This document shows, piece by piece, positions 13,782 through 36,219 of a stretch of 64,000 nt of DNA; the first letter of the stretch is position 1; every line of letters starts with the position of its first letter. The translations under genes were made by a program, and so were the position numbers. This DNA comes from a virus. The DNA is taken from the IMG/VR virus record IMGVR_UViG_3300047472_000449; one strand, written 5' to 3'. The notes under the pieces are model-generated. The model was not told the DNA's origin. It was given only the letters and a program-made list of their open reading frames with translations, and did no database searches.

Positions 13782-14543
13782 TCAGGCGGCGTCTGGCGTC
13801 CAGTTGACCGCCTTGTCGAAGTCCTCTTGACTCATTTGCACGCCGACCCGGCAAACGCGCAGAAAAGCGTTACGAGCTTCCTCGGCGGTGGCGTTCTCGA
13901 TCAAAGTTACGACGGTCTGCGCATTGCGAAAGGCATTGGTGCATTGGTCGTGAAGCTTGATGAACGCTTCGATTTCAGCGCTATCCGCCCCAGCCTTTTC
14001 CCACTCGTTCCAGCGCTGGCGCAGCAGTTGATTGATGGTGTGGTTGCCGCTGTCGCAAAAGGGCAGCAGTGACCAAGCTGGCAACCGAAAGCCGACATCG
14101 GCCTCTTCGGCAGGCACAAACATCATGCGCTGCTCCTTGCTGTCCAGCACCAAACGCTGACCGGCCAGCCATGTCGAGGATTCTTCGGTACTCATGCCTT
14201 CGAACAGCGGCAGACCCGCAAAGTCCCTTACCATCATCCAGGCCAGTGTTGCCATGCGGTTCTGCCCGTCCAGCAGCAGGCCCACAGCGCCACGATCACC
14301 CTCTTTAGGGCCTGTCAGCGGGCCGAGGCGTCCTTTCGAGACCTTGTTCAGATCCGCCTTGTTGCCCGGCTCCCACAGCACAAAGCCGCCGATAGGGAAA
14401 TTCGACAGAATTGAATCGCACAGACTTTCCACGTCGTCCTTGATCCAGACATAGGGCCGTTGCATGGCGGCAGGTTGCATGCGACCTGCCGCACAGTCTT
14501 CGATCATGCTGGACAGGTACGGCGTGCTCTGGCGAATTCGCAT
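13782..14543 (-). CDS. stand-alone DUF262 (GmrS/SspE N-terminal, ParB-like fold) domain protein
   Basis: QRPYVW, FPIGGFVLW and LLDGQNR motifs; no HNH C-terminal domain; exact start uncertain. Confidence 0.8.
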   Translation of the reverse strand: MRIRQSTPYLSSMIEDCAAGRMQPAAMQRPYVWIKDDVESLCDSILSNFPIGGFVLWEPGNKADLNKVSKGRLGPLTGPKEGDRGAVGLLLDGQNRMATLAWMMVRDFAGLPLFEGMSTEESSTWLAGQRLVLDSKEQRMMFVPAEEADVGFRLPAWSLLPFCDSGNHTINQLLRQRWNEWEKAGADSAEIEAFIKLHDQCTNAFRNAQTVVTLIENATAEEARNAFLRVCRVGVQMSQEDFDKAVNWTPDAA

Positions 14544-14584
14544 GGTCAATTCCGAATAGATTCAAAGGAGTGTCAATGAGGGAA

Positions 14585-22013: not shown

Positions 22014-22282
22014 TGACTGACGAAGCGCAGAAACCGCTCAAAAAAGAGAACGTCGGCTGATCCTGCTGAGCTATTTGTTTGTGTTTTGCTGTATTTATTT
22101 TGCAGGCAATTATCTTGTCGATAAGTCATCTGAAGCGACCGACAAAATGAAACAGAATGTCGGTGTTGCCGAACAGGTCATCAAGGATACACAAAACCTT
22201 CTTAGCGACACAAAACCATCAACACTGTCGCCACACCACTAATTCTCAACTAATCATCAATTTGATATTCAACGGAGTCACC

Positions 22283-24604
22283 GTGATTTCAGGCCCTATT
22301 CGCAATAAAAAAGACGCCACAACACTTAATCAAAAAAATCTCGTGACTGATGTGACCAACCTCAACGGCACGCGGGTATTTGCCGAGGTGACCCCAGCTG
22401 GCATTTATGATGTGGTCAGGGCGCTGACGTGTTTTGATGGCCCGGTTTCGATTGGTGGTGGACGCTTCAGCATGGGTGGCCAGATCGCCAGTGAGGGCAG
22501 TCTTCATTTGGACATGCGCAACCTTGCGAACATTGATGAACCTAAGTTCAACAACGGTATCCACACCATTTTTGTTCAGGCTGGGGCGACGTGGAAGGAT
22601 GTTCAGCGTCGCATTGATCCGCATGACTTGTCTGTGTCGATTATGCAAACCTATTCCAACTTCACCGTGGGTGGCTCGCTGAGTGTGAATGTGCATGGCC
22701 GATATGTCGGCCAGGGCGCGCTGATTCATTCGGTGCAGTCCATTTTGCTGGTGTTGGCTGACGGCACGCTTAAAACAGCATCACGCACCGAAAATCCCGA
22801 GTTGTTCTTCGGCGCCATTGGTGGTTATGGTGGCATCGGCGTAATCGTTGGGGCTACGTTGATCTTGGCCAAAAATACCAAGGTTGAGCGTTCGTCGAAA
22901 GTCATGCCGCTGGAGGATTACCTGCACTACTTCCAGACCGAAGTGGCCAGTAAAGCCGATCAGGTGGTGTTTCATAACGGCAATCTGTGCCCGCCTCACT
23001 ACTCCACCGTACGAGCCATTTCGTGGAGTCAGACCGACAAGCCAGTCACCCAGCCTGCTCGCCTGTACGAGAAGCGCAAACTGTACCCGCTGCACAAGTA
23101 CGCAATGTGGTCGGTCAGCGAGCTGCCGTTCGGCAAATGGCGTCGTGAGCACATCATTGAGCCGCTGCTGGATCGCAAACCGGCTGTACATTGGCGCAAC
23201 TACGAGGCCGGGTACGACGTGGCTGAACTGGAGCCGGTCACCCGCAGCTACCGAACCTATGTGCTTCAGGAGTACTTTGTGCCGGTCACGCACTGCGCAG
23301 CTTTCGTCAAGCGCATGGGGGACGTGCTCAACCAGCACAACGTCAACGTCATCAACGTGTCTATTCGTCACGCCAAGGCGGATCAGGAGTCGTACCTGTC
23401 CTGGGCGCAGGAAGAGGTGTTTGCCTTTGTCCTGTACTACAAGCAGGGTGTGACACCGGCTGACCAAAAGGCAGTGGGGGTATGGACACGTGAGCTGGTG
23501 CGTCTTGCTTCGCAGTTCGGCGGTTCGTTCTACCTGCCTTATCAGCCGCATGCCACCCGTGAGCAGTTCGATGTGGCCTACCCTCGGGCGGCAAAGTTGT
23601 TTGCTCTCAAAGACCGTCTTGACCCTCATTATCGTTTCCGCAATGTGATTTGGGAGACGTATTACAAAGAATCCTCGGCCACTCAAAGCCGTAATCCGAA
23701 TCACCAACGCATGGAAATCACGGGCATGGAAGGCGAGCTGAGCATTGCAAACTCTGAGTTTCGGGGAGTGATGGCTGACAAGTACTGGCAAGATCAGCTC
23801 TATTTGTTCCTGCAAAACGTGTATGGCCTTTACCCAGCGGCGTCGCTGTTCCAATTGATCGAGCAGCAGTGCGTCGTCTACATGCGTGATGAGGCCATCT
23901 ATCGTTCCACTCAGGAGCGCCTGGGTGAACTGACCAACCCGGTGCGGGCTGCGTTCATGGGCCTTGCGGCGCTGAGCAAGCAGAAGAAAGAAATGGCCGT
24001 CCAAGTGCATTCGTTGACCGGTGGCGGGCGTGCTCGTGCGGTAAACAGCTACGTTGAGATTGGCTCCAAGGGCCGCTACTTCAAGGGCAGTTGCAACACG
24101 AAGGAAGTGGTGCAAGCGCAGTTCGTCGAAGAAAAACCAGTCGGCTACTCGCCGTTGGACATTCTTGAGCGTGGTGCGGTGCCGATTACCGGTCAACAGT
24201 ACCTGCTGGCTGATTACGAGCCGTTGCAAGTGACCGGGCGCGGCCAGATGGACATGGTGACCTGCTTTATCGGCCTACACCATATTGCGCCGGAAAAACT
24301 GGAGGCGTTCGTGCGCTCGATTGCCGACTCGCTGGCCACCGGGGGTGTGTTCATCTTGCGCGAGCACAATGTCGAGACCCCGGAGATGCACCGTTTTGTC
24401 TCGCTGATCCATACCGTGTTCAACATGGGTCTCAAGGAGTCCTGGGACACTGATAGCCGCGAACTGCGCCACTTCCGCAGCCTGAGCTACTGGATCAACT
24501 TGCTCGACAGTGTGGGCCTCACGCTGGAGTCAGGGCCGATCTATCAAAAAGGTGATCCATCCCTTAACGGCCTGATGATGTTCCGTCGCCGTGCTGATGA
24601 CTGA
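22283..24604 (+). CDS. FAD-binding oxidoreductase (VAO/PCMH type) fused to a class I SAM-methyltransferase-like domain
   Basis: GGGRFSMGGQ, VQAGATW, TVGGSLSVNVHG, GGYGGIGVI; C-terminal VTCFIGLHH..GGVFILREH; GTG start with GGAG RBS. Confidence 0.85.
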   Translation: MISGPIRNKKDATTLNQKNLVTDVTNLNGTRVFAEVTPAGIYDVVRALTCFDGPVSIGGGRFSMGGQIASEGSLHLDMRNLANIDEPKFNNGIHTIFVQAGATWKDVQRRIDPHDLSVSIMQTYSNFTVGGSLSVNVHGRYVGQGALIHSVQSILLVLADGTLKTASRTENPELFFGAIGGYGGIGVIVGATLILAKNTKVERSSKVMPLEDYLHYFQTEVASKADQVVFHNGNLCPPHYSTVRAISWSQTDKPVTQPARLYEKRKLYPLHKYAMWSVSELPFGKWRREHIIEPLLDRKPAVHWRNYEAGYDVAELEPVTRSYRTYVLQEYFVPVTHCAAFVKRMGDVLNQHNVNVINVSIRHAKADQESYLSWAQEEVFAFVLYYKQGVTPADQKAVGVWTRELVRLASQFGGSFYLPYQPHATREQFDVAYPRAAKLFALKDRLDPHYRFRNVIWETYYKESSATQSRNPNHQRMEITGMEGELSIANSEFRGVMADKYWQDQLYLFLQNVYGLYPAASLFQLIEQQCVVYMRDEAIYRSTQERLGELTNPVRAAFMGLAALSKQKKEMAVQVHSLTGGGRARAVNSYVEIGSKGRYFKGSCNTKEVVQAQFVEEKPVGYSPLDILERGAVPITGQQYLLADYEPLQVTGRGQMDMVTCFIGLHHIAPEKLEAFVRSIADSLATGGVFILREHNVETPEMHRFVSLIHTVFNMGLKESWDTDSRELRHFRSLSYWINLLDSVGLTLESGPIYQKGDPSLNGLMMFRRRADD

Positions 24605-24609
24605 TCAAC

Positions 24610-25755
24610 ATGAACACGAAAAAGATCACCGGCAGCCTGTTGGCTGCCCTGCTGGCCAGCAGCACCGTGGTGAACACCGCCCAAGCGGATGCCACGGTTA
24701 CTGCGATCATTCTTCCTATGGTGACCGAAATGATGGTTAACGATAAAAACAAAGCGGCTGAAGCGCCTGAGGCGTCAGCAGAGCGAAAGAGCACCCTGAC
24801 CCCACCTGAGCATGTGCGCCGCGAGGATCAAACGCTGCTGACGATCCCAGAGTGGTTCCTGGTACATAGTCCGAAGGAGTACGCCAATTACATCAAGGCC
24901 GAGCGACCTTCGCGCTTCCCGTTCTTTGGTCACATTCGCCAGTTCTGGAGCACCTACGCCGCCGTCCACAAGGCCACCAAGGATCGCTACAGCTTTAATT
25001 TCGAATACCATGCGGTCGTCATGACCATCGGTATCAGCACCACTGTGGAATACGCCATCAAGGGCGCCTATGAGGCAGTGTTCGGCGCCTTGACCGAACG
25101 GCGTGAGCCCAAAGCCTACCGCACTGCCGAAGACGAATACGCAGCAAAAATCGCCCGTGATTACGTGAATTTTATTGTGGTTGATCCCTGGTACAAGTTC
25201 GACTTCATGGCGGCATTCAACGGCCTATGGGATCTGCCAAAAGAAGGCGAACACCGAGTGCGCAAGTGGGAGCGCCGCTTTGCACTCTCCGCTGAATACC
25301 TCGCCAAGTCCGGCTATGCCTGGGTGATCAAAAAGACCACCCAAGCCAGCTTTGATCCGCCCAAACCGGTCACTGCTGTGGTGGCACGTTTCAAAACAAA
25401 GCCTTCGCCTCAGCAGGTGCCCGGTATGACGGTGCTCAAGCAGATCGATGCTCATCGTTATCTGATCACCCTGCCCCGTTACCAAGCTTTTTCAGACAGT
25501 GCTGTTGCTCTGGCTCGGGCTGGCGCCGACTTTGAGGAAATCGCGGGCAACAATGAGTTCATTGTGCTCAGCGTCCTCACCAAAAGCGACTTCGATGAAT
25601 CGAAAATGGGGGCCAGCGTGGTGCTGCGCCAGCCAATTATCACTGTTCCAGGCATGGAACGCGTGGTGTTTCGTGTGCCGATCAGCGAGTTGTCTACGGC
25701 ACTCATCAAGGCCCGCCATGCAGGCTATAACATCGAACACATCTACGATTTCTAA
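24610..25755 (+). CDS. conserved hypothetical partner of the FAD oxidoreductase, signal peptide-like N-terminus
   Basis: 381 aa, 5 nt after upstream stop. Confidence 0.8.
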   Translation: MNTKKITGSLLAALLASSTVVNTAQADATVTAIILPMVTEMMVNDKNKAAEAPEASAERKSTLTPPEHVRREDQTLLTIPEWFLVHSPKEYANYIKAERPSRFPFFGHIRQFWSTYAAVHKATKDRYSFNFEYHAVVMTIGISTTVEYAIKGAYEAVFGALTERREPKAYRTAEDEYAAKIARDYVNFIVVDPWYKFDFMAAFNGLWDLPKEGEHRVRKWERRFALSAEYLAKSGYAWVIKKTTQASFDPPKPVTAVVARFKTKPSPQQVPGMTVLKQIDAHRYLITLPRYQAFSDSAVALARAGADFEEIAGNNEFIVLSVLTKSDFDESKMGASVVLRQPIITVPGMERVVFRVPISELSTALIKARHAGYNIEHIYDF

Positions 25756-25777: not shown

Positions 25778-25816
25778 GTCAATGGCATTGACTATTGACC
25801 GTCGGGCGGGTATAAT
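25778..25816 (+). promoter_or_regulatory. sigma70 promoter + perfect operator
   Basis: GTCAAT GGC ATTGAC at 25778-25792; TTGACT-N17-TATAAT. Confidence 0.85.
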
Positions 25817-25845
25817 GATCACCTATCAAAGACAAGGAGTTTGCC

Positions 25846-26007
25846 ATGGAAATCGTACTGTACGTCTTGGCCATGTTCGGCGGCTCGCTTCAGTATGAGC
25901 CAGTGTTTTTCTGGTCGGTCATGTCGGCCATTGTGGTCGGCGCCATCGCGGTCTATGTCCTGACCGGGCGCCTGTTGCAAAAAACTCGCAAGTCGAAAGC
26001 GGCGTAA
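25846..26007 (+). CDS. 53-aa membrane peptide (absent from ORF track)
   Basis: AAGGAG RBS; MEIVLYVLAMFGGSLQYEPVFFWSVMSAIVVGAIAVYVLTGRLLQKTRKSKAA. Confidence 0.75.
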   Translation: MEIVLYVLAMFGGSLQYEPVFFWSVMSAIVVGAIAVYVLTGRLLQKTRKSKAA

Positions 26008-26043
26008 GCTCTCGACTTCCTTAATCGGTGTTACCATCACCGT

Positions 26044-26195
26044 AGGGCGGTTACAGGGGTCTGCATCAGGAATGAACAGATCGCGCCCGGCTACTGTGAT
26101 GAGCAGTTCGGCCATGCCGAGGTAACAGCTTCCTGCCCTGCCCCTCACCGGGCAGCAGAACCCTGAAGATGCAAACGTCTTCAGGGTTGTTTTTT
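26044..26195 (+). ncRNA. structured ncRNA candidate, copy 1
   Basis: extended -10 TGtTACCAT 6 nt upstream; conserved core shared with copy 2; terminator AACCCTGAAGA/TCTTCAGGGTT+T-run. Confidence 0.65.
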
Positions 26196-26286
26196 GTCCT
26201 CTGTTTGGGTTTTACCTGAGTATTTAACGACCATTGACCGGTAGACGACCCATCTATTATCTGAAGATTGGTGCTAAGCTACTGAT

Positions 26287-26422
26287 AGGGCGGCTTCAGG
26301 GGGTCGAAAGATCGCGCCCAGCTGCTGTGATAAGCAGTTCGTCAATGACGAGGTGACAGCTTCCTGATCAACCCTAGGCAGGGTGACAGTGCCCCGGAGG
26401 TGGAAACGCCTTCGGGGCTTTT
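26287..26422 (+). ncRNA. structured ncRNA candidate, copy 2
   Basis: extended -10 TGcTAAGCT 6 nt upstream; compensatory stem TCGTC/GACGA vs TCGGC/GCCGA; terminator GCCCCGGAGG/CCTTCGGGGC+TTTT. Confidence 0.65.
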
Positions 26423-26515
26423 AATGCCTTGAATTTGAGTTTTAACGTTGGAGCAGATAGTTAATCCGCTCATTGCCAACTAAAGTCAGATGATCAAAGA
26501 CGCCGTTCCCAGTAG

Positions 26516-26710
26516 GTGATGATTATGGAGAATCAGACATTCAACCAGTGGCTGCATGAGGGTAATCGTTATGAGGCGCTACAGGACGTTTACTTCGAAG
26601 ACCGACTTGGGCCTGGGAATGACTTTTTGAAGTGGGCTCAGGCCATGTACTGCGCCAAGCAGGCGCTGCTCAGTGATGGACAAAAGGCGCCACCATGGCC
26701 ATTCAATTAA
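26516..26710 (+). CDS. small hypothetical protein
   Basis: ORF track. Confidence 0.5.
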   Translation: MMIMENQTFNQWLHEGNRYEALQDVYFEDRLGPGNDFLKWAQAMYCAKQALLSDGQKAPPWPFN

Positions 26711-35529: not shown

Positions 35530-36219
35530 TCAGGCCACCTCAGCCTTTTTGGCGGCATCCAGCTGCGCGATATGGAACTTGATGGCGTTCAGTTGCAGGT
35601 GCAGCACCGACTTCATCAGCTCGTACAACGCGTTTTGTTCAGGGAACAGGCGCTTGGCTTTCTTGAGCATCGGAAAGTAGTACTTTTCAGTTTCTTCCAC
35701 GTACTCACGCAGTTTGGCTTCGCTGAACACGCCCAGCATGGTCGAGAGGTTGTGCAGGCGATCAATCAGCTTCACGATGGAGCAGATGATGCACAGCGCC
35801 ACTTCGTCGATGTATTCCTGCGTGTTCAGTTTCACGCCCCGGCGAATTTTGCTGGAGCGGATGACGTACTCGATCAGCTCAGCGAACTTTTGACGAATTT
35901 CGTCTTCCAGGTGCTGATTGTCTTCGTAGGTGTCATGCAACAACAGCGTACCGATGATCGTAGCGGCGTGCGTCATGTTGGGGGCCTGGGCCTGGGTCGG
36001 CGCAAAACGCATGTTGCGGATCTGGGTCAGCGCAAATCCTACCAGACTCAGCTGGTGGTAAAACTCTGGAGTTACACCGTCCTTGCGAAAGCCGGTGTGG
36101 ATCTCGCTGGCGTAATCGAGGGCGCGTACGCACGTCAGGTACGATTCATCGATCTGAGCCATGCCAAGCAGTTGAGCGCGGATGGTCAGTTTCAGTTTGT
36201 CGAACTCAGTGGTGTTCAT
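35530..36219 (-). CDS. stand-alone RelA/SpoT-type HD hydrolase (small alarmone hydrolase/Mesh1-like)
   Basis: ASEIH.GFRKDGVTPEFYH, LLHDTYED, IVKLIDRLHN motifs; TTGACA-N17-TAGAAT promoter. Confidence 0.85.
   Translation of the reverse strand: MNTTEFDKLKLTIRAQLLGMAQIDESYLTCVRALDYASEIHTGFRKDGVTPEFYHQLSLVGFALTQIRNMRFAPTQAQAPNMTHAATIIGTLLLHDTYEDNQHLEDEIRQKFAELIEYVIRSSKIRRGVKLNTQEYIDEVALCIICSIVKLIDRLHNLSTMLGVFSEAKLREYVEETEKYYFPMLKKAKRLFPEQNALYELMKSVLHLQLNAIKFHIAQLDAAKKAEVA

Follow-up and report, generated by a model that had tools for sequence, protein, structure and literature searches.

Within the 64,000-nt stretch of DNA analysed here (the window), two paralogous units, copy 1 (c1) and copy 2 (c2), lie head to tail approximately 90 nt apart, forming a repeat unit of ~243 bp (Table 1). 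The two units can be aligned over their full length, with 88% identity in a 58-nt core. Each of the sequence elements listed for this pair in the original prediction was found again: the GGGCG/CGCCC stem in both copies; a nested loop that reads GUC-GAAA-GAU in c2 and GUC-(17 nt)-GAU in c1; complementary CUGU and ACAG segments in both copies, as read from the sequence; UCGGC-CAU-GCCGA in one copy and UCGUC-AAU-GACGA in the other, a compensatory change from G-C to U-A; the segments CAGGGG and UUCCUG; and a further hairpin that occupies the same position in c1 and c2 but differs in sequence. Neither sequence comparison nor a search with a covariance model (CM) built from c1 and c2 gave any further copies in the 64-kb window, and ARAGORN found no tRNA or tmRNA. 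A dispersed repeat or MITE is ruled out, as copies exist at syntenic positions only. Judging from the sequences, the tandem observation is more than chance, for the element recurs in eight related loci.

Table 1. Features of the c1/c2 region and of the corresponding position in related loci. Coordinates are those of the window unless a locus is named; CM, covariance model.
Feature	Position	Strand	Details
Near-consensus promoter	25788-25816	+	TTGACT-17-TATAAT in palindrome GTCAATGGCATTGAC
53-aa hydrophobic ORF	25846-26007	+	Upstream of c1
Extended -10 promoter of c1 (predicted)	26029..26037	+	TGtTACCAT; TG 26029-30, TACCAT 26032-37; recognisable -35 absent
sRNA copy 1 (c1)	26044..26196	+	~150 nt; CM match 139.9 bits
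c1 helix P1	26045-49/26084-88		
c1 helix P2	26059-63/26077-81		Bears 17-nt insert, apical loop displaying CAGGAA
c1 helix P3	26089-92/26127-30		
c1 helix P3a	26093-97/26103-07		
c1 helix P3b	26108-12/26116-20		
c1 helix P5	26133-38/26150-55		
c1 terminator	26159-26188	+	Hairpin and U-run
Extended -10 promoter of c2 (predicted)	26272..26280	+	TGcTAAGCT; TG 26272-73, TAAGCT 26275-80
sRNA copy 2 (c2)	26287..26424	+	~136 nt; CM match 121.7 bits
c2 helix P1	26288-92/26315-19		
c2 helix P2	26303-05/26310-12		GAAA loop
c2 helix P3	26320-23/26358-61		
c2 helix P3a	26324-28/26334-38		
c2 helix P3b	26339-43/26347-51		
c2 helix P5	26364-75/26380-89		
c2 terminator	26391-26418	+	Hairpin and U-run
Promoter-like site of the 61-aa gene	~26459-26487	+	Conserved T(A/G)GT(C/T)A-17-TA(A/G)AGT
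61-aa gene	26525..26710	+	Always ~100 nt downstream of c2-type copy
158-aa gene	L026 6230-6706		No assigned family; between small ORF and single sRNA copy
Remnant of 158-aa gene	L029 2204-2350		

The public sequencing runs that contain the stretch are rhizosphere metagenomes, and the contig on which a neighbouring 381-aa protein is recorded measures 1.14 Mb. Pfam and PHROG match hardly any of the larger ORFs in the window; the very few ORFs with a Pfam match include a GmrSD_N-domain protein (13782-14549, minus strand) and an HD_4-domain protein (35530-36219, minus strand). Positions 22157-25755 encode a fusion of FAD_binding_4 and methyltransferase domains (815 aa), followed by the 381-aa protein, which belongs to no known family. 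Homologues of the latter number more than 500 and come from Pseudomonas, Burkholderiales, Xanthomonadales and other groups, and the FAD-binding gene adjoins the 381-aa gene in all three other contexts examined. No terminator is present between the 53-aa ORF and c1, and the terminator of c1 therefore probably also ends the mRNA of the ORF. In a single-organism run (X9), a contig that starts at 25822, close to the predicted transcription start of the 53-aa ORF, matches the window up to 25967 and then continues into unlike sequence, so that it holds the 5' part of the ORF. Homologues of the 61-aa gene with 74–82% nucleotide identity are found on large P. aeruginosa plasmids (p382, Rms163 and others), where they lie amid long runs of small hypothetical genes, without the sRNA.

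Homologues of the 53-aa ORF led to eight syntenic metagenome loci (L026-L033) that are 84–93% identical to the window, and the CM finds the RNA in all eight, with scores of 108–135 bits. Orthologues of c2 are present throughout (L026-L033), and a c1 orthologue (135.3 bits) is present in L030-L033. Four loci (L030-L033) thus have both copies and four (L026-L028 and L029) have a single c2-type copy; at the position that c1 takes in the window, L026-L028 carry a gene for a 158-aa protein, and L029 retains a remnant of that gene. In all, the family set comprises seven distinct sequences, plus one strain variant that is known from its substitutions only (run X6). By pairwise distance, the single-copy form is intermediate between c1 and c2, consistent with a duplication in the lineage of the window. 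The single-copy form of the relatives probably represents the older state, with the gene having been duplicated, presumably recently, in the window's lineage. In another run (X5), positions 26216-26417, which comprise almost the entire c2 together with its promoter, are identical to the window, and the next 223 nt contain 14 substitutions; this contrast (26216-26640) points either to a boundary of recombination or to selection acting on the RNA.

Searches of wider scope returned no additional members. Distant blastn against phage and plasmid collections gave no match to the RNA; the only match, on P. aeruginosa plasmids, was to the 61-aa gene. Three P. aeruginosa plasmids searched with the CM yielded two weak matches, both across coding junctions. 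Four patterns run against a viral contig collection gave chance matches only. One pattern run against a genome contig collection gave four chance matches, a scan that says little because its pattern misses five of the seven family sequences. With a pattern that fits all seven, metagenome contigs returned 30 GC-rich chance matches (CM scores of at most 17.7 bits), and among the Gammaproteobacteria genomes searched, from a sample of 401, the pattern was absent. No such RNA lies within 10 kb of the more distantly related FAD/381-aa gene pairs in L022-L025. Because the pattern scans yield chance matches only, the family is known solely from one replicon lineage.

As originally predicted, AGGGCGG follows an extended -10 element by exactly 6 nt in each copy, starting at 26044 in c1 and at 26287 in c2, and both copies end in a hairpin and U-run. 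Across five distinct upstream sequences of the sRNA, the signature TGnTAnnnT, 6 nt, AGGGCGG is invariant, with variation in the spacer and at the inner positions of the -10. Terminator-like sites number seven in the 1.2-kb region versus 1.1 expected from shuffled sequences. The conservation of this signature supports the view that each copy is equipped with its own putative promoter and terminator. Each copy would most likely be transcribed from its own extended -10 sigma70 promoter, starting at or next to AGGGCGG, and transcription would end at the intrinsic terminators to give RNAs of ~150 and ~136 nt.

The products would be RNAs rather than peptides, insofar as comparison of the sequences can tell. 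Within the core, 1-nt indels and a difference of 13 nt in length (17-nt insert versus GAAA loop) exclude a conserved reading frame, and no conserved ORF was found on either strand of the sRNA genes. A mini-ORF, AUG-CCG-AGG-UAA, loses its stop codon in L026 and is thus unconserved. Relative to L030, the c1 core is 96.5% and the c2 core 90.3% identical, as compared to 91–97% for the flanking protein genes and 86–87% for the spacers. The RNA genes are therefore conserved on par with, and not above, the flanking protein genes, and above the spacers.

RNAalifold returned the same core from two sequences and from seven. In this predicted core, P1 (GGGCG/CGCCC) encloses a 5' internal loop of 9–10 nt together with P2, and is followed by a three-way junction formed by P3 (GGCU/AGCU), P3a (loop GAURA) and P3b (loop CAU or AAU); 3' of the junction come the variable hairpin P5 and then the terminator with its U tail. 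The internal loop of the P1/P2 hairpin is asymmetric, with the sequence GUUACAGGG(G). We propose that the full RNAs would adopt this fold, i.e., a P1/P2 hairpin with an internal loop, a three-way junction, P5, and a terminator with a U tail. In the alignment of the seven sequences, 98.1% of cells are paired under this fold, which was derived from the same sequences, compared with 34–48% when partners are slid. Six pairs change on both sides in the seven-sequence alignment (one in P3b, two in P5, and three, all compensatory, in the terminator stems), and all nine one-sided changes are compatible with pairing. The strain variant in run X6 carries G105A and C132U in the c2 terminator, converting the outermost pair from G-C to A-U, as well as A50G and G60A, which maintain pairing in P3a. 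P1 and the putative seed show zero variation across the seven sequences.

The covariation that had been claimed for this RNA is thus real in P3b, P5 and the terminators, but the CUGU/ACAG stem proposed with it is less favoured than the junction. RNAalifold selects the three-way junction, and P3 and P3a together contain five compatible one-sided changes, versus one for the alternative CUGU/ACAG stem; these changes favour the P3/P3a/P3b model. Covariation comes from few events, since the family is known from close relatives only (4–24% divergence). For the proposed pseudoknot between CAGGGG and UUCCUG, four base pairs are invariant, without covariation, and the fifth, G15-U88, is broken in three of the seven sequences. 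A GAAA tetraloop is retained by P2 of the c2 type and by the terminator hairpin of seven of eight sequences, and conservation is higher in loops and junctions than in the P5 and terminator stems. The core alone has ordinary stability (z = -0.17 and -1.55); the values for the full RNAs (z = -3.3 and -4.0) are mainly due to the terminators. In the predicted fold, the RNA is almost wholly base-paired and a long single-stranded seed is absent.

A search of the whole window with Rfam 15 gave zero matches at the gathering score, and relaxing the threshold to E<=10 for positions 25900-26550 gave only four noise matches (E 4–7, 10–16 bits), in line with the earlier suggestion of an unrecognised ncRNA family. 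For CUGUGAUGAG, a hammerhead reading was rejected (the core would require C3 and G8, c2 has GAUAA, and no model matched), as was a C/D-box or k-turn reading (c2 has GAUAA, and again no model matched). The features by which sibling sRNAs are recognised, a class defined by function and not by homology, are found at the level of sequence: a predicted promoter for each copy, a Rho-independent terminator, and paralogous copies. We consider it rather likely that c1 and c2 are sibling sRNA genes on a very large uncultured rhizosphere replicon and belong to a family that had not been described before, and we infer that they are transcribed. The RNAs would then probably be riboregulators that act in trans. 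Candidate segments for target pairing are the conserved, unpaired GUUACAGGGG or CUUCCUG; otherwise the RNAs might act by binding protein. Motif searches with the complements of GUUACAGGGG and ACAGCUUCCUG were at chance level and gave no target within the window.

The main rival to a trans-acting regulatory role, which we favour, is a role that depends on the fold itself, through binding of a protein or ligand. The RNAs would then be structured decoys, sponges or scaffolds without a seed, and the junction and the loops GAURA, CAU/AAU and GGURAC would form the functional surface. We regard this as unlikely, but as deserving serious consideration: helices take up nearly all nucleotides, the P5 and terminator stems are less conserved than the loops and junctions, the GAAA tetraloops are kept, and c1 bears a CsrB-like hairpin loop, CAGGAA. 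Rsm-type regulators are, moreover, encoded by large Pseudomonas plasmids, as has been reported (PMC9928087). However, each RNA contains only one or two GGA motifs, which also speaks against the protein sponge envisaged originally; the CAGGAA loop is specific to c1 and missing from every c2-type copy; and a motif scan of the window found neither a CsrA-like nor an Hfq-like gene. Nor is there a linked partner protein, as the neighbours change among loci (the 158-aa gene in place of c1) and the 61-aa gene is found elsewhere with no such RNA beside it.

A more far-reaching proposal of this kind, for which we see little chance, is that c1 and c2 represent a new class of structured RNA in which the pseudoknot docks the 5' internal-loop hairpin on the three-way junction. 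Such an RNA would bind a protein of the host or replicon, or a small molecule; its promoters would escape a replicon-wide repressor, and a megabase-scale mobile replicon would by this means interfere with host regulation.

It is similarly improbable that the RNA acts in cis, either on the upstream gene, as its 3'-UTR or terminator module, or on the 61-aa gene, as its leader or attenuator. Several aspects of the layout are compatible with such an element: (i) At each locus, the RNA lies directly 3' of a plus-strand gene, which is the small ORF or, in L026, the 158-aa gene. (ii) With no terminator before the RNA, the terminator of the RNA probably also ends the upstream mRNA. (iii) The distance of ~100 nt between the c2-type copy and the 61-aa gene is constant. 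Against these stand the conserved promoter signature immediately 5' of each copy and the variation of the upstream gene among loci. In addition, c1 is followed by c2 and not by a gene, and the 61-aa gene has a conserved promoter-like site of its own. By inspection, no convincing antiterminator pairing stands out, and no riboswitch model was matched.

An RNA antitoxin, either of type I against the 53-aa hydrophobic peptide or a ToxI-like decoy of type III, appears very unlikely, although the ORF directly upstream is small and hydrophobic and has a very strong promoter. The longest complementarity of the sRNAs to the mRNA of this ORF is 8 nt with Watson-Crick pairs and 10 nt when G-U pairs are allowed, which is chance level (80–293 of 300 shuffles do equally well), and no antisense peptide ORF is conserved at the sRNA genes. 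The 158-aa gene separates the ORF from the RNA in L026, and in the X9 contig described above the 5' part of the ORF runs on into unlike sequence. As for the ToxI-type decoy put forward originally, there is no Rfam match to ToxI, the neighbours have no toxin-like Pfam domain, no nearby toxin gene of the ToxN type was found, and an array of short repeats (34–45 nt) is absent.

HDV-like ribozymes are defined in part by a G·U wobble that closes P1 at the cleavage site. That c1 and c2 are ribozymes of this type, cutting the upstream mRNA at A/GGGCGG, is scarcely credible: the order of the strands does fit the connectivity noted originally (in HDV nomenclature, P1 GGGCG/CGCCC, P2 CAGGGG/UUCCUG, P3 GUC/GAU and the junction domain as P4, in nested double pseudoknot order), and the small-ORF mRNA probably continues into c1, but membership fails on every feature examined, in that HDV-type Rfam models give no match even at E<=10, P1 has the Watson-Crick pair G2-C45 and not G·U at its base in all seven sequences, L3 (GAAA in the c2 type, a 17-nt hairpin in c1) cannot pair with J1/4 (GG or AG) to make P1.1, L026 has U in place of C86, the sole candidate for the J4/2 catalytic cytosine, three of seven sequences break the P2 pair G15-U88, and the promoter ends 6 nt 5' of the supposed cleavage site.

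Thus, c1 and c2 are most likely genuine sibling sRNA genes, as far as sequence comparison can indicate, and belong to a new and narrowly distributed family that matches no described one. On present evidence they are another candidate for the lineage-restricted sRNA families that are common in bacterial and plasmid genomes. If transcribed, they would be the first riboregulators described for a rhizosphere replicon that is of megabase scale and almost wholly uncharacterised, and would offer a small, tractable entry to how giant elements communicate with their hosts. Through the recent duplication there is also a natural pair in which the divergence of sibling sRNAs can be followed, with a single copy in some relatives and two diverging copies in others.

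Several known systems resemble c1 and c2 in part. As in HDV-like ribozymes, the order of complementary segments can be drawn as a nested double pseudoknot, but the G·U wobble, P1.1, the invariant catalytic C and the Rfam models set the two apart. In ToxI and pseudo-ToxI, as in c1 and c2, a structured RNA is repeated in tandem on a mobile element; their units measure 34–45 nt, however, in contrast to the two ~243-bp units here, each with its own predicted promoter and terminator, and they are followed by an endoribonuclease toxin gene, of which there is none after c1/c2, and no Rfam match to them was obtained. sRNAs of the DapZ/MicL type are derived from 3'-UTRs, being expressed from an internal promoter after the stop codon of a same-strand gene with which they share a terminator. 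The genes described here likewise lie just past a same-strand stop codon, with a promoter at the end of the gene, but the upstream gene of this family varies by locus and c2 comes after another sRNA. The closest parallels in organisation are PrrF1/PrrF2 of P. aeruginosa, OmrA/OmrB and AbcR1/AbcR2, although these have no sequence or model similarity to c1/c2, as Rfam holds these families and gave no match. Compared with them, c1 and c2 are more fully structured, lack an obvious seed, and are located on a giant accessory replicon instead of a chromosome. Tandem sibling sRNAs with a promoter and terminator each are an established arrangement, and PrrF, Omr and AbcR share with c1 and c2 the head-to-tail order of paralogues, a similar size (~100–150 nt) and a recent, lineage-specific duplication (PMC4211561).
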